The notes below the pieces were generated by a model. The model was given only the letters and a program-made list of their open reading frames with translations, had not been told where the DNA came from and searched no databases. Below are positions 44,000 through 61,463 of a stretch of 64,000 nucleotides of DNA, in pieces. The position numbers and the translations under genes are program-made. Within the stretch, counting starts at the first letter, position 1. Each line of letters starts with the position of its first letter. The stretch is from Candidatus Poribacteria bacterium (GTDB taxonomy: Bacteria; Poribacteria; WGA-4E; PCPOR2b), in assembly GCA_965208325.1 (NCBI GenBank), contig OZ242326.1:3552001-3616000 (forward strand), read 5' to 3'.

Positions 44000-45154
44000 C
44001 TAACTAGACCAGATTGGCGTCAAGACCTTCGTCAATTGAAGAAGGCTTTTCAGGTTGTGAGCTGGCAAGAAATGGTCGACATGCAGCAAAGCGGTACGTA
44101 TTCCTCGACAGAGCGGTTGGTAACCTTCGCATCCAAGCAAGGGGTTCAGCCAAATCACTTTGTATGCGCGGCGATGCAACATCTCCATTGCCGTCCGCAG
44201 CAAATTCGGATCGCCTCGATCCCAACCATCACTGATCAAAATTACAACGGACCTGTAGGCTGAGAATGACGGTGCAAACTCCCGATAAAAGGCGATGAGG
44301 CTTTCACCAATTTTTGTTCCGCCTGACCAATCTGGCACGACCTGTGCTATCTCACGAAGTCCGTCTTCGACTGTTTTGCGCCGCAAAATGCCGGTAATGT
44401 TGGTCAGCCGTGTGCTAAAGATTGCCGCCTCGATTTCCACAATTTCTCGCTGCATCCCGAAAATAAACTGGATAAGAAATTTCGAGTAACAGTCCATGGA
44501 AGCGCTGACATCGCAGAGCAGCAAAATTTTGTTCTTCTTAACTTTCCGGCGCTTACGGATTAGCTTCAACGGTTCACCACCGTAGGCAATGTTTTTTCGC
44601 CAACTGCACCGAAAATCGATTGTATCCCCTTTGATGCCAACTTTCCGGCGGCGGCTCAATTTGGTCGCCAGGAGGGACGCAAATTTAGCGATGATTTGGC
44701 GTGCTTCCTCAATGTCGGCCGCTGTGTAATGACTGAAATCCTTTTGGGTCAAAACATCATTAGGACTATACGCGATTGCGTCCTCTTTATCTCTGTCTTC
44801 ATCCTCATCAACCTCCCCCCATTCTCCCAGATTAAACATTTTGTCATCATCAGCGAAACTCTGCGGATCGGATGTCGACTTGGCTTCAATTGCTTCAAGC
44901 GCCAATGCCTTCAAGTCGGGGCGCGGGTGTTGCCAGAACAGATTGAAAGCGGTATCAAAAAGCGCCCGATCTGATTCACTCGCGATCAGGTTTGTTCTGG
45001 CTGCGTGGTAAAAATCGCCGCGCTGCGTTATATCAATCCATTCAAGACTTCGACAAAAGCTAATTTGGTTTGTCGTCGTCACATTTACGCCTATCTGCTT
45101 AAGCAATCGACAGAACACGGCGATTTCTTGAAGGAGGGTGCTTTGATTAACCAT
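44000..45154 (-). CDS. coxE: CoxE-like VWA domain protein
   Basis: DVSASM, FSTRL, WSGGTKIG, ISDGWDRG, WLNPL. Confidence 0.88.
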   Translation of the reverse strand: MVNQSTLLQEIAVFCRLLKQIGVNVTTTNQISFCRSLEWIDITQRGDFYHAARTNLIASESDRALFDTAFNLFWQHPRPDLKALALEAIEAKSTSDPQSFADDDKMFNLGEWGEVDEDEDRDKEDAIAYSPNDVLTQKDFSHYTAADIEEARQIIAKFASLLATKLSRRRKVGIKGDTIDFRCSWRKNIAYGGEPLKLIRKRRKVKKNKILLLCDVSASMDCYSKFLIQFIFGMQREIVEIEAAIFSTRLTNITGILRRKTVEDGLREIAQVVPDWSGGTKIGESLIAFYREFAPSFSAYRSVVILISDGWDRGDPNLLRTAMEMLHRRAYKVIWLNPLLGCEGYQPLCRGIRTALLHVDHFLPAHNLKSLLQLTKVLTPIWSS

Positions 45155-46137
45155 TATAGATTGTTAAATACCCTCAACGACGCCGCTTGCGAGCGAACAG
45201 CAGATTTATCATCTCCAATTTTCTCAAAGATTGTGTCCGGAGGTAGTTTGGCTCTATTTACCAGTTCACCAATGTTAACTTCCCGTACACACTGAATGTC
45301 GTCCTGAAATTTGAAGATACAACCCAGCGTTTCCTCAACGACGTTTGAATCCAATCCATCCTTTCCCAGCGCGATGAGCGCCAGTCCCCAATCCAGCGTC
45401 TCCGCGATTCCCGGTTTTTTATAGTAGTCGCCTTCACGGAAGAACTGCATCATGTTGCAGAGCTGTTGAGCGAGTGCGTCATTGATGTGCGGCAGTTTAG
45501 TCTTGACAATCGACAATTCCTTCTCGACCGAGGGGTAATCAATCCACTGGTAGAGACACCGGCGTTTTAGGGCTTCGTGAACCTCCCGCGTTCGGTTTGA
45601 AGTCAAGACTACGCAAGGGATATGCTTCGCCTCGATAGTCCCGATTTCCGGGATTGTAATCTGAAAATCCGATAAGATTTCAAGGAGGAAAGCTTCAAAC
45701 TCGCTGTCACTTCGATCGACTTCATCAATGAGCAGGACTGGTGGAACTGCGCCATCACTCTGAATAGCTTCGAGGAGTGGGCGCTTTAACAAGAAAACCT
45801 CACTGAAAATGTCTACACCAATCCGATCCTTGTCAATTCCCCGCGCCTCGTCAATTCGTAGTTGAAGCATCTGTTTGGTATAGTTCCATTCGTACAGGGC
45901 ACTGTTCGCATCAAGGCCTTCGTAGCATTGCAGTCGGATAAGTTTCCCGCCTGTTGCATCCGCTAAAACGCGCGCCACTTCTGTTTTACCGACGCCGGAT
46001 TCCCCTTCAAGGAAGATTGGTTTGTTCAGATGACTGGCTAGGAAAACCGTTGTTGCTAACGCTCGGTCAGCAATATAGTGATGATTCGCAAGTGCGTCCT
46101 GTATTGCTTGGATGGAGTGGAACATAATTACGGCCAA
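45154..46137 (-). CDS. coxD: CoxD-like MoxR AAA+ ATPase
   Basis: GESGVGKT, RLQCYEGLD, LIDEVDR, TSNRTRE, ALKRRC. Confidence 0.9.
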   Translation of the reverse strand: MAVIMFHSIQAIQDALANHHYIADRALATTVFLASHLNKPIFLEGESGVGKTEVARVLADATGGKLIRLQCYEGLDANSALYEWNYTKQMLQLRIDEARGIDKDRIGVDIFSEVFLLKRPLLEAIQSDGAVPPVLLIDEVDRSDSEFEAFLLEILSDFQITIPEIGTIEAKHIPCVVLTSNRTREVHEALKRRCLYQWIDYPSVEKELSIVKTKLPHINDALAQQLCNMMQFFREGDYYKKPGIAETLDWGLALIALGKDGLDSNVVEETLGCIFKFQDDIQCVREVNIGELVNRAKLPPDTIFEKIGDDKSAVRSQAASLRVFNNL

Positions 46138-46194
46138 TCCTTCATGGTAATACGGTGCGTGTTACGCATTGCCTAATTCCTAACCGGTACCCTA

Positions 46195-46845
46195 TCAGCG
46201 CACAACCACGTCCCTTAATGCTTCCAAGTAATCTTCACGGTAGTCGATGTCTCTAATCACACGATCGGTATCGACAACGACGTAATGAATGTCGTGCGCA
46301 TACTTTCGAAAAAGCGATCTGACACCGCCGTTCTCCGGTTCAAGCGCGAGGATGTCGGCGGCGTAACGGCGATCGAAAATGACGGGATGTCCTCGTCGAT
46401 TGTCATAGCTCGGAAGCGTAATCCCGCGGTCAGTTTCTGCGTACGCGTCAACTACCAGATTAATTAGATTGGATGTGATGAACGGTTGATCTACGAGCGT
46501 CAGAGCGAAGGCTTCCGCTGAATCGGAAATCGAACGCACGCCGCACTGCGCAGAGGTCAGCATCCCGCTCCGATATTCGGTATTAAACACAATCTTGACC
46601 GGTTTGTGCTCAATGCACGCTTTAACCTTTTCCGCTTCATGCCCTATTACGACAACGACGTCGTCGAGTTTCGATCCCAGCAGGTTATCAGTTACGGTTT
46701 CGATAATGGTACTTCCCTCGAATGGCAGAAGTTGTTTCGGTTCGCCGATGCGAGTGGATAGCCCGGCTGCGAGGATAATTCCCGATATTTTGGGGTTCAT
46801 TTTTGTCAGAATACAGACATAATTCGGCAAAAATTCAGCGTGCAA
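46195..46845 (-). CDS. mocA: Molybdenum cofactor cytidylyltransferase (MocA-like)
   Basis: ILAAGLSTR..PKQLL, VDQP, GHPV, DID; adjacent to coxD and coxE. Confidence 0.85.
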   Translation of the reverse strand: MHAEFLPNYVCILTKMNPKISGIILAAGLSTRIGEPKQLLPFEGSTIIETVTDNLLGSKLDDVVVVIGHEAEKVKACIEHKPVKIVFNTEYRSGMLTSAQCGVRSISDSAEAFALTLVDQPFITSNLINLVVDAYAETDRGITLPSYDNRRGHPVIFDRRYAADILALEPENGGVRSLFRKYAHDIHYVVVDTDRVIRDIDYREDYLEALRDVVVR

Positions 46846-52002: not shown

Positions 52003-53814
52003 TTAAATGTCCCACAACAGCACTGTGCCATCGGTGCTTCCGCTGGCAAGCGTTTTTCCGTCTGGGCTAAATGCTACGCCATTCACTTGGGCCGTATGCC
52101 CGGAGAGCGTCCGGCGAGGTTTTCCCGTGCTGACATCCCATAAACGGACGGTGTTGTCCACACCCCCGCTTGCGATGTTGTGTCCATCGGGACTAAAGGC
52201 TACGCTCTCGACACATCCCTTATTCCCAGAGAGGGTGCGGAGGTGTTCGCCCGTACCAACTTTCCATAAACGGACGGTGAGGTCCCCACTCCCGCTTACG
52301 ATAGTTTGTCCATCGGGACTAAAGGCTACGCTCTCGACACGTTCCTGATGCCCAGAGAGTGTGCGGATTTGCTCGCCCGTGCTAACTTCCCATAGAAGGA
52401 TGGCGCCATCCGAGCTCCCGGTGGCGAGTGACTGTCCATCGGGGCTAAAGGCTACACTAGTGACGTGATTCTTAATCCATGTAAGTGTGTAAAGTTGTCT
52501 ACCTGTATTAACATCCCATATGATGGTTCTGGTTAAATCCCCGGTGGCGAGCATGTGCCCGTTGGGGCCAAACGCTATGTTATAGGCACTAATACAATCT
52601 CCGAGGGTGTGGAGGCGGTTGCCTGTGCTAACGTCCCATAAGATGATGTCTCCCACGCTCCCAGAAGCGAGTATCTGCCCATCTGGACTAAAAGCTACGC
52701 TCTCGACACTAGTCCGATGCCATGAAAGTGTGCGGCTGTGTCTACCCATACCAAACTCCCATAGATGAACTCTTGCGCCGAAATCACCCGTGCCCCCGCT
52801 AGCGAGCGTGTGTCCATCTGGACTAAAGGCGACACTCAGGACACTTTCCTGATGCCCAGAGAGTGTGTGGACGTGTTCGCCCGTGGCAACATTCCAAAAA
52901 CGGACGGTGTTGTCTGAGCTCCCGGTAGCGATAGTGGTTCCATCGGGACTAAAGGTTACGCTATTGACATCATGCGTATGCCCCGAGAGAGTGAAAAGAT
53001 GTTTCCCAGTGCCAACCTCCCATAAATAGATGATACCACGAGGGTAAGTTTGGCCTCCACTTGCCAGCGTGTTTCCATTTGGACTAAAGGCTAGGCTCAC
53101 ACTGTCTCCTGGAGGCCCAGAGAGGGTGTAGAGGTGTACACCGTCAACGCTCCATAAACATATGGAATTGTCCCTGCTTCTGCTAGCGAGCGTGTGTCCA
53201 TCCGGACTGAAAACTATACGTTTCAAATCGGAGGTATGCCCTCCGAGCGTGTGTATGAGTTTGCCCGTGCCAACATTCCATAAACGAACGGCATGGTCCC
53301 TCCATCCACCTGCGCTGGCGAGTGTTTCTCCACTGGGACTAAATGATATACTGACGACACCACCCGTATGCCCCGAGAGGGTACGGACGTGTCCGCCTGA
53401 GCCAACATCCCATATACGGATGGTACCGTCATGGCTTCCGCTAGCGATGATATTTCCGTCCAGACTAAAGGCTACGGTATTGACAATATCCGTATGTCCT
53501 GTGAGTGCACGGAAATGCCTACCCGTGTTGACATCCCAAAGACGGATACTTTCGTCCCAATTCCCGGTAGCGATTGTATTTCCATCCGGACTAAACGATA
53601 CGCTCAGGACATCACTCGTCGAATGCCTTGCGAGGAGAGCGAGCTCTTGACGGGTTTCAACATGATAAAGCCAAACGCCGATAGAGGTCGCGACCGCCAG
53701 ACGTGTATCGTCAGGAGAATACTGTATTTCCCTTATTATGCCTTTGCCCAAGCGGAGTTTTGCACTTTCGGGTAAACTGAATTGCGTATAGTCTAGTTCA
53801 AGCGGGTTATCCAC
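52003..53814 (-). CDS. WD40-repeat beta-propeller protein
   Basis: About 13 repeats of GH...V.SVAFSPDG..LASGS.D.TVRLW; N-terminal YTQFSLPESAKLRLGKG. Confidence 0.95.
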   Translation of the reverse strand: MDNPLELDYTQFSLPESAKLRLGKGIIREIQYSPDDTRLAVATSIGVWLYHVETRQELALLARHSTSDVLSVSFSPDGNTIATGNWDESIRLWDVNTGRHFRALTGHTDIVNTVAFSLDGNIIASGSHDGTIRIWDVGSGGHVRTLSGHTGGVVSISFSPSGETLASAGGWRDHAVRLWNVGTGKLIHTLGGHTSDLKRIVFSPDGHTLASRSRDNSICLWSVDGVHLYTLSGPPGDSVSLAFSPNGNTLASGGQTYPRGIIYLWEVGTGKHLFTLSGHTHDVNSVTFSPDGTTIATGSSDNTVRFWNVATGEHVHTLSGHQESVLSVAFSPDGHTLASGGTGDFGARVHLWEFGMGRHSRTLSWHRTSVESVAFSPDGQILASGSVGDIILWDVSTGNRLHTLGDCISAYNIAFGPNGHMLATGDLTRTIIWDVNTGRQLYTLTWIKNHVTSVAFSPDGQSLATGSSDGAILLWEVSTGEQIRTLSGHQERVESVAFSPDGQTIVSGSGDLTVRLWKVGTGEHLRTLSGNKGCVESVAFSPDGHNIASGGVDNTVRLWDVSTGKPRRTLSGHTAQVNGVAFSPDGKTLASGSTDGTVLLWDI

Positions 53815-53905: not shown

Positions 53906-54544
53906 TCATCGCGGTAGTGAGCCATATTTGGCAAACTCATTTGCCACCACCTCTGCAAGCTGCCGCACAATCTGTTCTGCATCATCAATGTCAGCTCTGG
54001 AATAAGAGGTTTCAACAAGGTTACTTGAATCAAGTTCTTGAATGCCGACCGCAAATTTATTTTCTGAACGGTGATAAAAGCGAGCCAATCCTCTTTGTAT
54101 CAGTGGCATACGCAACTCCTCTTCCCAACGAAGTGAAATTTCATCAAGGAGAATCGCACGGTATCCTTGGGGGGTCATATCAACTCGTAAGATAAATCCC
54201 CCCAAACTTAAATCATGACCTAAGTTGAATCGAAGACGAACGCGGGAGTCGATAGTCGTAATCTTTTCATTTTGGAACCAATTTATGTAAGCATCAAAAC
54301 GCGCTAGGGAGTTTTGAATCCTAGGTTTATTATTTAGTCTATAACTTTGAAACAACTTCTTGGTATACTCCCTAGCTTCTTGTAAATTCCCATCTCGGTG
54401 AAAGCGACAAATTCCTTCGCGGAGACAATGGTTGTAACTTGTTCCACGAAAAGTTGTATTAACTTGTTTTGAAACCCATTGGGACGGATTTCGCTGGCAT
54501 TGGGCAAGTTGACTGTGGCTGATTTTACTATGAGCGATTCTCAT
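53906..54544 (-). CDS. Degenerate RecB/AddB-like (PD-(D/E)XK fold) protein, last gene of the Qat-like operon
   Basis: ISHSQL..C..NP, GT..NH.L, L.G.I.RVD and ILLDE follow the RecB-family motif order but without DYK; ATGA overlap with the qatC-like gene. Confidence 0.45.
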   Translation of the reverse strand: MRIAHSKISHSQLAQCQRNPSQWVSKQVNTTFRGTSYNHCLREGICRFHRDGNLQEAREYTKKLFQSYRLNNKPRIQNSLARFDAYINWFQNEKITTIDSRVRLRFNLGHDLSLGGFILRVDMTPQGYRAILLDEISLRWEEELRMPLIQRGLARFYHRSENKFAVGIQELDSSNLVETSYSRADIDDAEQIVRQLAEVVANEFAKYGSLPR

Positions 54545-55842
54545 GACAGAAACGGGGTTAGGGCGGCATACCGACTGAGTACGGTCCGTGCTTCCCGTGA
54601 AAATCGTCTATACATTTCAATAACTTTATCAGCGTTAAGATTAAGCGAGTATAGTTCAGGCCACTCACTCATAATGTCTTCAGCTGACGATTCCTCGATT
54701 TTTACGACGAATTCCGTCAAATCGACGATGTTCCGCCGACCTATGTCCTCAGGGTCTATTTGACTGATTTTCTCTTCCCAACAATTTCTACCATATGCTG
54801 TCGAATCTTCAAAAATTAGGAATTCAACAGCGATACGCCGAATAAAGCATGGAATACATGCGCCGCAATGTGTGATACCAGCAGGAAGACGAGAATTACG
54901 CCAACAACTGTTTGTTATCGGAATTATGTCGGGAAAGAGGTTTATGACCTTCTTGACAACTTCTGCTTTCGTCAAATGAACATACGGATTTAAAATTTGG
55001 AACGGCGCATCGAGTGCTTCCGCCAAAAAGACCTCCATACCGACTAAAATGTCTGGATGGGCTGTATGTGTGGAGAATGCTCCAATTCGACCTTGCGTCA
55101 ACGGTAGATGAATAGCCATCTGTCCATTCTCCGCGAGATAGACTATTTCGACTTGCCCCGTTCGGCGCGCTACAAGCGCACCGAGCACAAGAAAGAGAAA
55201 CGAGCGTGTTCGTTGACTACTTTCTACGTCATGGTCCAATTGGCTTGGTCCGCCGTCCCGCGAAGAAACGAAAAATCGGTAGTGCGGGAGATTCAATCCA
55301 CGATTTTTTAGTTCTGCAGCTAAATTTATCTGTGCCTGCGCTGTTGCCCGATTTCGTGTTATGTGGCTTACGAGTTGTAGCGTTTTCTCCTTTTGGCCAA
55401 ACTCGATGGCGGCAGCAAGCGAGTCCAATCCTCCGGAAAAGAGAAGTGTTCGCCCGCCTCCTTGAGTAACCTGTATATTCTTTTCGGGATCGCCAGATAC
55501 TTGTCTCAAATTAACCCTCCAGGCGTCATTTGAGAGATTTCGGAGAATCTCTTCGATTCTCGAAGTGATTGGCTGTAAGCGAATAGAATTGACAACCGGT
55601 ATCTGTAGTTCAATTCGTCTGGAAATGTCCTCTCGGACACCACGGGCCGTGGCTCGGTCTGCCGCAAAGATGGACGCACCAATCAGCAACAAATCCGATT
55701 CCAAACTCGTCAACGATCCAAATACTTTCTCAAAACGATCTTCTCCTGTAGACAGGTTCTTTCCCACTTCAAGTATGTGATCGCATTTTCCATCCTCATT
55801 GCCTCCTCGACGGACAAAATATGAAATCATTGCGTACTCCAC
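54541..55842 (-). CDS. qatC: QueC-like protein of the QatC type
   Basis: N-terminal extension (DLL.I...IFAADR...R); PP-loop LFSGGLDS; QRTRSFLF; ENG; STHTAHP; NPY..TKAEVV; zinc motif SC..HCGACIPCFIRR. Confidence 0.8.
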   Translation of the reverse strand: MEYAMISYFVRRGGNEDGKCDHILEVGKNLSTGEDRFEKVFGSLTSLESDLLLIGASIFAADRATARGVREDISRRIELQIPVVNSIRLQPITSRIEEILRNLSNDAWRVNLRQVSGDPEKNIQVTQGGGRTLLFSGGLDSLAAAIEFGQKEKTLQLVSHITRNRATAQAQINLAAELKNRGLNLPHYRFFVSSRDGGPSQLDHDVESSQRTRSFLFLVLGALVARRTGQVEIVYLAENGQMAIHLPLTQGRIGAFSTHTAHPDILVGMEVFLAEALDAPFQILNPYVHLTKAEVVKKVINLFPDIIPITNSCWRNSRLPAGITHCGACIPCFIRRIAVEFLIFEDSTAYGRNCWEEKISQIDPEDIGRRNIVDLTEFVVKIEESSAEDIMSEWPELYSLNLNADKVIEMYRRFSREARTVLSRYAALTPFLS

Positions 55843-56399
55843 TCTCCGCTAAGGGATGCAATCACGGCAGAAATATAATTCCGCCATCCTCGTGGATTGG
55901 CGGTTATGGGGGCTACGGCTCTTGCGGCATCGCGTGCGATGTTACGCAGATTTTCTTTGAGAGCGATCGAATCGGTTGTTGTTTGAATACGCCCCGAAGC
56001 CCCGACGAAGGAAGGTAAATCGCGGGAAGCATAGTATGATATAGCTTCAGCAAAAAGTTCTGCAGCAAACCCAACGGAACCGCTTTCGGTTGCTGATGCA
56101 CGTGCCAACGCTCGTTTGGCCATATCAAAAGTGAGACCTACTGCGTACTGTTCATTCAATGAATGGTTAAATGATTGAACAGCGTTTGCGGGCGGTAACC
56201 TCTGCTCGGCAATTTCACACGCCGACGCTATTAATGGATTCGCCAACTCTTCAATCAATCGTCCATCTCGATCCATAACGGCCGATCGCCAGAGTTCCTC
56301 GCTCTGTCGCTCGACAGGCCAGTTCAAGTCGCCTAATACAGCTAGCACTGGTCGCCAGTTGGGTGTATTCGGGGATGATTGATTGCTCGATGTTCCCAC
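55827..56399 (-). CDS. QatB-like protein with an N-terminal MGTS motif
   Basis: GGAG RBS, GTG start, MGTSSNQSSP..W; helical; immediately upstream of and overlapping the qatC-like gene. Confidence 0.6.
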   Translation of the reverse strand: MGTSSNQSSPNTPNWRPVLAVLGDLNWPVERQSEELWRSAVMDRDGRLIEELANPLIASACEIAEQRLPPANAVQSFNHSLNEQYAVGLTFDMAKRALARASATESGSVGFAAELFAEAISYYASRDLPSFVGASGRIQTTTDSIALKENLRNIARDAARAVAPITANPRGWRNYISAVIASLSGEWSTQ

Positions 56400-56401
56400 G
56401 A

Positions 56402-57331
56402 CTAAACTCCGTTTTTTATACGTTCATCATCAACAGCCTGCAATTCTTTCTCAATGACGCTGAAATGAATACGTCCGCCCTTAAAAACTTGATTCCACCG
56501 GATACCATTACGAACGTCTGGTTTCCGTCTGAAAAGATTGACAGTTGCCGCAAGAACATTGGCATCAATAAAAGATAAGGGCACTTTGGCTTCAGCGCTA
56601 AATTCCAGACACAGTTCTAATAATCGAGCATCGTCCTGTTTAAATTCGGAAGAAGAGACAAGTGCCCCGTACAATTCCACATGACCACGCTGCCTGACGC
56701 GTTGCTGTTCAACATATTCAGCGAGCGGGCGTAACTTCGACCATACGACGTTAAAGCCGTCAGCAGATGCTTTTGTATCAACGACGAGGATCTGGCTTGT
56801 AGGTATTTGAGCCAGCATATCGCTGACACGACGACCACTTAAACGACCACCCAATCTTCTAACACGGCGTCCGAAAATAAATTCTAATCCGGAACAGACC
56901 AAATCCTCAAAAATTAACCACGCTTCGCCTTGTGTTTCACCAGCGGGCAACTGGTTCTTTGCGGCGGTTATCAAAGCTTGCTCGTACTCCGGGCTGAGCG
57001 CATGCCACGATGGAACCGCCCCACCAAGTGCTTCAGTAAAGTCTTCCCACGAAATTGTCTTTTCACTTGGTATGGGAGATACAATAACTGGGGTACGATT
57101 TTGATTTTGAGCGGAATGGTAAATGTCATCGATCTCCGGCTCAGACAGTTCATCAAGATCGGTGACAGCAATCAGGTATGGGATGCTCGCCCCAAGAATA
57201 TCTGTTCGTTTACATCGAATTTCGATATGACGAGGTTGCCTATGGCTACCCTCTATAGAATAGCCGGCAACGATTAGTGTCCGAGTAGCGGTTTGCGTTT
57301 GGGGGAAAGTTAAGTGACCGTCGTCCACCAT
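56402..57331 (-). CDS. PD-(D/E)XK restriction-endonuclease-like protein, first gene of the Qat-like operon
   Basis: C-terminal FEDLV...LEFIFG...LGG...VSD...VVDTK motif; probable start MVDDG after AGGA. Confidence 0.6.
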   Translation of the reverse strand: MVDDGHLTFPQTQTATRTLIVAGYSIEGSHRQPRHIEIRCKRTDILGASIPYLIAVTDLDELSEPEIDDIYHSAQNQNRTPVIVSPIPSEKTISWEDFTEALGGAVPSWHALSPEYEQALITAAKNQLPAGETQGEAWLIFEDLVCSGLEFIFGRRVRRLGGRLSGRRVSDMLAQIPTSQILVVDTKASADGFNVVWSKLRPLAEYVEQQRVRQRGHVELYGALVSSSEFKQDDARLLELCLEFSAEAKVPLSFIDANVLAATVNLFRRKPDVRNGIRWNQVFKGGRIHFSVIEKELQAVDDERIKNGV

Positions 57332-57570
57332 TTTATTCCTGCTTGATCGAATTATCCCTTTATTGCTAAGATTCGATTCCATTTGCAACACTCAATTTGA
57401 GACGTATTCATTACAGAGCCATTCAGAAAATCTGCTAGTTAGAGAAAGATTAGTGTTGGCAGCTTTCAGTTGGGTTTTTATCGCCATTGCTATTCGCTCG
57501 CTTAATTCGTTGGTAAGGGGGAGGATATACCGAACAGATTCAGAATTTGGAGCAGAGTTCATTTATTCTT

Positions 57571-59997: not shown

Positions 59998-60450
59998 CTA
60001 TCGTGTTGTTGCCGATTGTGCCAGTGTCTCAACGCCTTTAAAGAATTTGCCGATTGTCATTTTGGCTGCCCCAGTGATGATTCTTTGACCGACGCGGGCA
60101 AGTTTTCCGCCGACATTCAATTTTCCATCAAGTGCGACTCCGGTCTGATTTTGTTCGGTTTCCTTCAGTGTAAAATCGCAGAAGCCATTGATGAATCCAA
60201 TCTTGCTGGCGCCTTCGACGACGAGCCGGTATGCTAACACCGGTTGTTTGTTTTCCATCTTCACAATGCCGGTATACACGCCTTTGATTCCAGCAACGCC
60301 GACATTTAGTACCGCTTCGTAAGCGTCATCGCCAATCGATTTGAGTCCTTCACATCCTGGGATACACTGCTGCAGGTACTCAGGATGTGTAAGATACTCC
60401 CAAACTCTTGCAGGAGCCGCAGAAACTGTGTATTCGCCTTTGATTTTCAT
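59998..60450 (-). CDS. coxG: CoxG / SRPBCC family protein
   Basis: VWEYL..P..L..CIPGC, VGGKLA.VGQR. Confidence 0.88.
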   Translation of the reverse strand: MKIKGEYTVSAAPARVWEYLTHPEYLQQCIPGCEGLKSIGDDAYEAVLNVGVAGIKGVYTGIVKMENKQPVLAYRLVVEGASKIGFINGFCDFTLKETEQNQTGVALDGKLNVGGKLARVGQRIITGAAKMTIGKFFKGVETLAQSATTR

Positions 60451-60605
60451 GGTTACATTGCCTCAACCGGCACTGCAACTGATACCGGTATTGGCACCGG
60501 TTCATCCAATATCGCTAGATTGTATCTATCTTGGCGGGGAACTGCTAGTGCTTTCTCATACTGCTAAAGTTATCGGCTTCACTGGTGGATAGTGCAGTAC
60601 AAATA

Positions 60606-61463
60606 TCAAGAGGCGGCGCTTTCGATTGCACGATGGGTATACACTCTCGCCAAATTCTTGCGGTATGCCTCGCTGGCGTGGATATCTTCTAAAACATCAT
60701 CTACACCATCAACGGCTTTTTCTGCGGCTGCGGCAATGTTTTCAGCAATGAGGGCTTTGCCTCTCAAATCTGATTCAACGCTCGCCGCCCGGTAAGGAAC
60801 ATTAGAGACACCGGTAACGCCGACAGCAAGGTTTTGGCAAATATCTCCAACCTGCGAGAGGATAACCGCAACGCCAGTAAGGGCAAAGCCGGATGCAATC
60901 TGAGGCAGCTTCAGGTATGTCCCTTTAGTGTTTGCGCCGGGTATGGGCACGTGAATTTCAGTAATAATTTCTTCCGGCTCAATCGCGGTCGTATACAAAT
61001 CTTCAAAGAACTCGGACGCTTTAATTGAGCGTTCACCACCTTGGCCGACGGCTTTAATTTCAGCGTCGAGCGCGAGAACCGCAGCGGGCCAATCGGCGGC
61101 TGGATCGGCATGCGCAAGGCTGCCCCCGATGGTGCCTTTATTGCGAACCTGAACATCGCCAATCGCAGCCGCAGTTTGTGCAAGCAGCGGAATCTTCCGA
61201 TGCGCTAAATCTGACGTCTCAAGTTCATAGTGCGTCGTGAGTGCGCCGATAATCAATGTACCGCTCGACTCGGATATCCCCTTTAAGGCGCCGATTTGAT
61301 TCAGGTCAACGATTACATCGGGTTCAGCCAACCGCAACTTCATGGTTGGAATTAGACTATGTCCTCCGGCGAGTAGCTTTGCGCCCTCTCCATTTTCTTT
61401 CAAGAGCGCCAAGGCCTCATCAACTGACGTCGGTGCAATGTATTCAAAACTTCCCGGAATCAT
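60606..61463 (-). CDS. coxM: CO dehydrogenase-like FAD (medium) subunit
   Basis: LAGGHSLIP.MKLR, QVRNKGTIGGSLAHADPAAD, YR. Confidence 0.92.
   Translation of the reverse strand: MIPGSFEYIAPTSVDEALALLKENGEGAKLLAGGHSLIPTMKLRLAEPDVIVDLNQIGALKGISESSGTLIIGALTTHYELETSDLAHRKIPLLAQTAAAIGDVQVRNKGTIGGSLAHADPAADWPAAVLALDAEIKAVGQGGERSIKASEFFEDLYTTAIEPEEIITEIHVPIPGANTKGTYLKLPQIASGFALTGVAVILSQVGDICQNLAVGVTGVSNVPYRAASVESDLRGKALIAENIAAAAEKAVDGVDDVLEDIHASEAYRKNLARVYTHRAIESAAS

Follow-up and report, generated by a model that had tools for sequence, protein, structure and literature searches.

A compact four-gene cassette in a Candidatus Poribacteria bacterium: apparently an undescribed variant of the Qat family with a FokI-type nuclease

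On the minus strand of a 64,000-nucleotide stretch of a Candidatus Poribacteria bacterium genome (assembly GCA_965208325.1, contig OZ242326.1, positions 3,552,001 to 3,616,000; the whole stretch is called the window, and its own numbering is used below), four genes lie end to end in 3.4 kb, at 53906-57331, and together make up what is apparently an undescribed variant of the Qat family. From gene 1 to gene 4 they encode a two-domain nuclease, a QatB-like partner, a QatC-type enzyme and a RecB-fold protein. We propose, with a probability that we put at about 0.58, that this cassette is a self-contained, horizontally mobile relative of Qat in which the modified gene 2 protein controls the FokI-type nuclease of gene 1, with the gene 4 protein acting as a sensor, adaptor or brake. 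By analogy with its relatives, the cassette would most likely act against phage, with the nuclease as a definite effector. QatABCD was reportedly described as an anti-phage system by Gao and colleagues in 2020. Three structural papers of 2026 place QatB-QatC at the core of a widespread defence system (PMC13279940, PMC13376578, PMC13639016; structures 9zee/9zef and 9vlk/9vll), without settling which group QatC adds to QatB or by what route phage is stopped.

The four genes form one self-contained unit. A scan anchored on gene 3 and reduced to one genome per species yielded 41 loci, and 34 of them had all of genes 1 to 4, with order and strand unchanged; of the remaining seven, three run into contig ends (L005, L030, L038) and the rest are only partly preserved, as truncated copies or fragments (L019, L032, L040, L041). 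The reverse test, anchored on gene 1 and made on 80 metagenome loci with relatives of about 39% identity or more, found gene 2 next in 56/57 loci with room for it, gene 3 in 36/42 and gene 4 in 29/35. In all eight exceptions examined, gene 1, 2 or 3 was truncated, so that we regard these loci as decayed cassettes rather than other architectures. Synteny across genomes had been set beforehand as a test by a first-pass annotation of the window, and the arrangement proved to be conserved from either anchor. Moreover, the identities of the gene 1, 2 and 4 proteins track that of gene 3 (Spearman 0.82-0.86, 27 loci), no fifth gene recurs across loci in the clustering of flanking genes, and the genes that flank the cassette in the window were present in 0 of the 41 loci.

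Judged by their record titles, the gene 3-anchored loci span at least 12 phyla. The closest gene 3 relatives, 75-78% identical, are from other Poribacteria; further sources are Gemmatimonadota, Acidobacteriota, Bacteroidota, Nitrospira, Dormiibacterota, Chloroflexota, Melainabacteria, a Symbiobacteriaceae member, Armatimonadota, Omnitrophota, a proteobacterium and one record labelled as an archaeon. A profile of gene 2 gathered 370 representative clusters (50% identity); 183 reached E ≤ 1e-30, and nearly all were about 185-195 amino acids (aa) long. The variant is therefore not a curiosity of one genome. Decayed copies were seen at L077, L106, L109, L117, L120, L083, L129 and L032, with gene 2 cut after 57-154 residues, or gene 3 cut at about residue 299 and followed by unrelated genes; they suggest frequent loss of the system. 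Almost no divergence separates the QatC-like proteins of L026, an Anaerolineales metagenome-assembled genome (MAG), and L030, an Omnitrophota MAG (branch lengths 0.017 and 0.016), which points to either recent transfer or a binning error.

The family assignment is carried above all by gene 3 (54541..55830, minus strand, 429 aa), which encodes a predicted QatC-type, QueC-family ATP-dependent enzyme with N- and C-terminal extensions. The protein matches the PADLOC QatC model at 2.9e-55 and the NCBIfam QatC model at 2.6e-61, and because the NCBIfam score of 207.7 bits falls below the equivalog cut-off of 280, we place it in a divergent QatC subfamily. Solved QatC chains are matched over residues 49-348 (9zee_B at 3.7e-28, 9vlk_A at 3.6e-26); QueC models match weakly, the Pfam QueC model covering residues 266-338 only. 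Invariant in 28 relatives are SGGxDS, DxW, RxRxxxF, ENG, S-T-x-T-A-H-P, P-x4-TK and a zinc site, C...HCGxCxPCxxRR, the same motifs as those listed for the QatC cluster in PMC13329287, and the window protein has the PP-loop (SGGLDS), STHTAHP and all four cysteines. It also has the Thr-x-Thr of QatC, two threonines that are invariant and essential there and replace the Tyr/Asp by which QueC and Cap9 read 7-carboxy-7-deazaguanine (PMC13279940). In a quick tree, rooted with the very long-branched QueC of the same genome, 29 variant enzymes formed a single long-branched clade (Shimodaira-Hasegawa-like approximate likelihood ratio, SH-aLRT, 100) beside seven canonical QatC. Identity to any of 135 plasmid QatC matches was at most 33%, and the plasmid matches inspected were classic qatA-B-C-D operons. 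A separate, full-length housekeeping QueC (258 bits) is encoded elsewhere in the host genome, as are PTPS/QueD-type proteins and a tRNA-guanine transglycosylase (TGT), all more than 0.6 Mb from the window, and none of queD, queE, queF or tgt was found among the 14 neighbouring open reading frames (ORFs) scanned. The first-pass annotation had taken gene 3 for a QatC-like protein rather than housekeeping QueC, with no such pathway genes nearby, and PADLOC, NCBIfam, the solved chains, the motifs and the tree placement all agree with it.

The likeness of gene 2 (55827..56399, minus strand, 190 aa) to QatB is of a different kind. Its product starts with MGTS, within an N-terminal tag MGTSxNxxSPxTxxW of which 29 sequences share M1, G2, T3, S4, S9, P10 and W15 without exception; wherever the start is intact, relatives read M/V/L-GTS, then SP at 9-10 and W at 15. 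QatB likewise starts with MGTS and has a conserved Pro and Trp, and either G2D or deletion of the Pro/Trp stretch abolishes defence (PMC13279940). Past the tag there is a domain that is conserved within the gene 2 family. Searches found no QatB match for it in NCBIfam (E ≤ 1) or PADLOC (E ≤ 10) and nothing among PDB sequences with the single sequence (E ≤ 10) or with the profile, and hhalign against seven canonical QatB from annotated plasmid qatABCD operons returned a probability of 1.2%; the Pfam copy used has no QatB model, and three canonical QatB went unmatched there as well. An Atlas search offered no more than a faint hint: at rank 15 (score 0.87), a cluster with QatB in 15% of its members. 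At 190 aa the protein is also shorter than the seven canonical QatB, of 224-296 aa. As far as sequence goes, gene 2 appears QatB-like at its tip only, the body being without detectable sequence likeness to canonical QatB, and the earlier description of it as QatB-like by virtue of its MGTS start holds for the tag and not for the body.

The tip is where the predicted structure gives this likeness a possible meaning. A model of the gene 3-gene 2 complex scored 0.91, the best of three controls reaching 0.01; 116 of 157 solved complexes attain the mark applied to such models, as do 2 of 215 mismatched pairs. At least 95% of contacts are shared between runs, and the predicted local distance difference test (pLDDT) of the partner is at least 90. 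Residues 1-10 of the modelled gene 2 protein contact gene 3 residues 134, 234 (E234), the 243-254 loop, 256 (T256) and 325-327, that is, from the PP-loop to the zinc region, and the C-terminal helices of gene 3 (355-396) contact gene 2 helices, contacts that resemble the published description of the QatBC interface. The model supports, but does not prove, binding of gene 2 to gene 3 with the gene 2 N-terminus in the gene 3 active site.

Gene 1 (56402..57331, minus strand, 309 aa) would provide the cutting activity. Its residues ~108-290 match a FokI-type PD-(D/E)XK cleavage domain, and its residues ~7-103 are modelled as a small endonuclease-like alpha-beta domain with no conserved acidic residues. 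E142, D171, D185 and K187, the E/D/DxK set, are invariant in 28 sequences. The Pfam FokI_cleav_dom model matches 8 of these 28 family members (best 1.2e-6), the precomputed Pfam annotation of the window protein is PF09254, and the family profile finds FokI in the PDB at 4e-4, with PDG...DTKAY of a family member aligned to PDG...DTKAY of FokI. A narrower profile built from a closer subset gave no FokI match in the PDB; the wider profile and the single family member did. The AlphaFold2 model (pLDDT 89.6) has FokI as its top Foldseek match at 6.8e-7. In the search for a QatA-type NTPase neither PADLOC nor Pfam gave a match for the protein, and a word-limited search found 126 family clusters at 90% identity, all unnamed or 'hypothetical'. 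The earlier call of a PD-(D/E)XK nuclease can thus be refined: by its motifs and predicted fold, gene 1 encodes a nuclease of FokI type that lacks a DNA-recognition domain.

Gene 4 (53906..54544, minus strand, 212 aa) had been described as a degenerate RecB-like gene, and both halves of that description stood up. Its model (pLDDT 95.0) has the RecB/AdnA/AddB/Cas4 fold, with full-length Foldseek matches to nuclease domains of RecB/AdnA/Cas4-type proteins; RecC of RecBCD is also among the Foldseek matches. The RecC subunit of RecBCD carries a dead nuclease-like domain. Across 30 gene 4 sequences only Y86, R120, D122, R145 and P147 are invariant, conservation of Lys, Glu and Cys stays below 90% at every position, and D122 is the sole conserved Asp; hence neither the catalytic Asp/(Asp or Glu)-x-Lys nor the iron-sulphur cysteines are conserved. 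D122 itself we take to lie in the motif II region of the RecB family, by our own reading of an alignment to the Pfam consensus. The protein is probably a catalytically dead nuclease fold rather than a nuclease. No fused, longer form of it turned up in the family search, which is weak evidence.

Building on these gene identities, folds and motifs, the conserved synteny and the modelled complex, we consider the following scenario for the chemistry and for the order of events. The gene 3 enzyme would bind the gene 2 protein and take its Gly2 into the ATP-dependent QueC-type active site. There, most likely, it would use ATP to join a small molecule that bears a carboxylate to the amine of Gly2, as has been proposed for QatB-QatC; the molecule might be a 7-deazaguanine but need not be one. 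The QatC reaction itself has not been reconstituted (PMC13279940), and, with Thr-x-Thr replacing Tyr/Asp, the 'deazaguanine-dependent' character that the first-pass annotation had ascribed to the locus is not established. The tagged or untagged state of the gene 2 protein, altered on infection, would then control the gene 1 nuclease. This nuclease has no recognition domain and probably must pair to cut DNA, like FokI, and would need partners for both placing and pairing; the cutting might destroy the DNA of the phage or, in an abortive infection, that of the cell itself. The gene 4 protein, translationally coupled to gene 3, would most likely be a sensor that binds DNA or DNA ends, or else an adaptor or brake for the nuclease. 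A more specific version, to which we give only a small chance, takes the Gly2 tag to be a tethered nucleobase-like ligand that is read by the gene 4 protein or by the N-terminal domain of gene 1, binding or release of the tail on infection licensing the nuclease to pair and cut, much as Cap10 reads deazaguanylated CdnD (10.1101/2025.04.06.647259). If this were true, the nuclease would be switched by a protein-nucleobase conjugate, and the Qat family would have its first explicit effector logic.

The ORF list of the window confirms four co-oriented genes on the minus strand, as originally described. For gene 1 the ATG at 57331 is preceded by AGGA and agrees in position with the starts of homologues; an in-frame GTG at 57391 would give 56402-57391, longer by 20 residues. 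For gene 3 the ATG at 55830 (MISYF...) is the start found in homologues, and an alternative GTG at 55842 would give 54541-55842, or 433 aa. The choice matters for the junctions: the 2 bp gap between genes 1 and 2 and the 4 bp ATGA overlap of genes 3 and 4 are as first annotated, but the 16 bp overlap claimed for genes 2 and 3 arises only from the GTG start, and with the ATG at 55830 it becomes another ATGA overlap, probably the true one, of 4 bp. The cassette had also been described as more AT-rich than its flanks, and the difference is real, if modest, with a guanine-plus-cytosine (GC) content of 0.465, where the window as a whole has 0.489 and the sequence just outside the cassette 0.52-0.53. 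Promoter patterns (8 vs 6.0 ± 2.6) and terminator patterns (3 vs 4.2 ± 2.1) were no better than in shuffles. Directly upstream of gene 1 lies an ORF of 56 aa (57392-57562, minus strand), which probably stands outside the cassette because it has no Pfam match and no relative in any fetched locus.

Around the cassette the window holds a cox-type cluster, a D-serine-dehydratase-like gene, an FAA hydrolase and a WD40 protein. The last is a WD40-repeat protein of 603 aa (52003-53814, minus strand, GC 0.529) that lies 91 bp downstream of gene 4; a flanking family of WD40 type was not recurrent in the flank clustering, the WD40 matches themselves not being tabulated since such repeats match too widely. 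The cox-type cluster looks split, with CoxG and the FAD-binding subunit on one side and a CoxE-like VWA protein, an AAA ATPase and a MobA-like protein on the other (44000-46845 and 59998-61463), and an AT-richer stretch at 48.5-57.4 kb (GC 0.44-0.47), holding the cassette and other genes, sits between the halves; this stretch may be an insertion. Elsewhere, a tyrosine recombinase of the phage integrase family lies 208-457 bp downstream of gene 4 in two Bacteroidota loci (L006:4657-5637 and L029:4001-4927), and one full cassette is found on an IMG/VR contig. In a Melainabacteria locus a gene of the poly-gamma-glutamate hydrolase family (L022:7940-8593; PF05908, 3e-39) begins at the stop of gene 4, and in a canonical operon on a Delftia plasmid a gene whose annotation names that family (L046:1-60) overlaps the start of qatA. 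The presence of such a gene beside Qat-type systems may be coincidence, or it may be a shared accessory gene.

Several considerations weigh against the scenario of a gene 2-controlled nuclease in phage defence. The defence role is argued from family likeness and neighbourhood only, and neither argument is free of trouble: matches to PADLOC models (E ≤ 1e-5) were found for 21 of 115 flanking ORFs, in 12 of 32 loci, and include type I restriction-modification, Lamassu-like, DISARM DrmD, TmtA, CapP/CapH and candidate PDC systems and one QatD, but the figure comes without a background rate and many of the models are generic (methylases, helicases), and in the window itself the neighbours are housekeeping genes and not a defence island. 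As for family likeness, gene 3 scores below the NCBIfam QatC cut-off, and because the gene 2 body is not detectably QatB-like, function can be transferred from QatBC to the cassette only by analogy. The success of the gene 2-gene 3 model may be memory, since QatBC complexes are already solved; the inactivity of gene 4 is deduced from the lack of conserved residues and not from superposed structures compared residue by residue; and a physical link of gene 1 or gene 4 to gene 2 or gene 3 is a proposal only. Nor need the gene 1 nuclease be the effector, because QatBC alone defends against some phages and QatD is dispensable there (PMC13279940).

This last point can be pressed further. Perhaps the gene 2-gene 3 pair is the whole defence machine, and genes 1 and 4 are accessories that tune or widen its range from the places of QatA and QatD rather than carrying the effector. 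QatBC alone protects against lambda-vir, and deletions of QatA or QatD lose only some phages (PMC13279940); gene 1 does occupy the place of qatA and gene 4 that of qatD, and one locus, L017, retains QatD after gene 4. Against this, genes 1 and 4 accompany genes 2 and 3 in nearly every intact locus, a retention that exceeds the 34% co-occurrence of qatA/qatD with QatC-cluster genes (PMC13329287), and the catalytic motif of gene 1 is invariant. We take this arrangement as a serious rival, if an unlikely one. A non-defence module of mobile elements, either an addiction system of toxin-antitoxin type with the nuclease as the toxin or a device for DNA processing by integrative elements, would fit the patchy distribution over many phyla, the differing flanks, the integrases beside two loci, the copy on a viral contig and the several decayed copies. 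Against it, the only characterised relatives of the gene 2/gene 3 core are anti-phage (PMC13279940; 10.1101/2025.04.06.647259), defence-type neighbours do occur in the 12 loci mentioned, and no gene for replication, transfer or recombination recurs with the cassette, all of which makes such a module rather improbable in our estimation. Finally, since a QueC-family enzyme adjoins a restriction-type nuclease here, and the QueC, QueD-type and TGT genes of the host could supply the pathway, one might imagine a Dpd-like or restriction-modification-like system in which gene 3 makes a 7-deazaguanine base for DNA and the nuclease cuts unmodified DNA. We give this hardly any credence: gene 3 has Thr-x-Thr instead of the substrate-reading Tyr/Asp (PMC13279940), QatC fails to complement queC (PMC13329287), the cassette is without a transglycosylase of TGT/DpdA type or a methylase, and the invariant Met-Gly tail of gene 2 is modelled in the very active site that would have to make the base. 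The control of a FokI-type nuclease by a modified gene 2 protein therefore stays our preferred reading.

Lastly, we need to consider how the cassette relates to systems already known. As in QatC, gene 3 encodes a QueC-family enzyme with N- and C-terminal extensions, SGGxDS, the zinc Cys4 site and Thr-x-Thr; as with QatB, gene 2 lies immediately upstream of the enzyme gene, is translationally coupled to it and encodes MGTS with Pro and Trp shortly after; and, if the complex model is right, the gene 2 N-terminus would sit in the enzyme active site as in QatBC, with contacts made through the long loop and C-terminal helices of gene 3. Unlike canonical QatC, on the other hand, gene 3 stands at 33% identity or less to the plasmid matches, below the NCBIfam cut-off and in its own long-branched clade, and unlike canonical QatB, gene 2 is shorter and unrelated in sequence beyond the tag. 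The clearest departure from QatABCD lies in the partners: the core is preceded by a FokI-type nuclease and followed by a RecB-fold protein, without the KAP NTPase QatA or, except at one locus, the TatD protein QatD. The first-pass annotation had noted that both were missing, and this was borne out: both are absent from the window, QatD by PADLOC and Pfam, and among related loci QatA was found in none (tblastn with canonical QatA finds canonical loci only) and QatD in one, the Gemmatimonadales locus L017, where a QatD-type TatD nuclease (L017:7918-8763; PADLOC QatD 1.4e-69) overlaps the end of gene 4 to give a five-gene hybrid, the sole such locus among those examined. Among IMG/VR contigs, ten loci (L050-L059) hold QatC relatives 25-33% identical to gene 3, with QatA and/or QatD found by tblastn in 9/10 (L052 has neither), so that classic Qat does occur on predicted viral or proviral contigs.

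The suggestion that the architecture is undescribed has so far held. PADLOC-DB 2.0.0 has no model for gene 1, 2 or 4, and the literature searched, its coverage ending short of the neighbourhood table of PMC13329287, yielded no description of a Qat core with FokI-type or RecB-type partners. The seven genomic forms given in the QatD paper are all subsets of qatA-D (PMC13434339), and about 34% of QatC-cluster genes sit with qatA/qatD in a Pfam-based analysis (PMC13329287). In type IV CBASS (cyclic oligonucleotide-based anti-phage signalling system), too, a QueC-family enzyme, Cap9, acts on the N-terminal glycine of a partner, and Cap10, which reads the modified N-terminus, offers a possible analogy for gene 4 or the gene 1 N-terminal domain (10.1101/2025.04.06.647259); the cassette differs in having no CD-NTase and no TGT-like Cap10 (no PADLOC or Pfam match of that type in genes 1, 2 and 4), and its enzyme is long and QatC-like, unlike Cap9, which has ~185 aa and keeps the Tyr/Asp substrate residues (PMC13329287). 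Gene 1 is closest to the FokI cleavage domain and to the nickase/small-subunit pair of BspD6I (PDB 1fok/2fok, 2ewf, 2p14), but in place of their recognition domains it has only the ~100-aa N-terminal domain, and it sits in a Qat-type operon; no methyltransferase recurs beside the cassette, type I methyltransferase genes lying near 3/32 loci only. Gene 4 resembles in fold the nuclease domains of the RecB family (AdnA, AddB, Dna2, Cas4 and the Argonaute-associated ACE1) and the dead domain of RecC, but stands alone at 212 aa, without the conserved Asp/(Asp or Glu)-x-Lys and iron-sulphur cysteines of the RecB-family nucleases. Set beside these systems, the cassette keeps the core features of Qat and swaps the dispensable QatA and QatD for a small nuclease and a probably dead RecB-fold protein, which would make the Qat core a portable module that recruits different partners. 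It might also serve as a compact system in which DNA cleavage offers a plain readout of what QatC-type modification does, and the copy in Granulicella sp. S156 (L016), whose record bears a strain name instead of a MAG label, may make its cloning practical.

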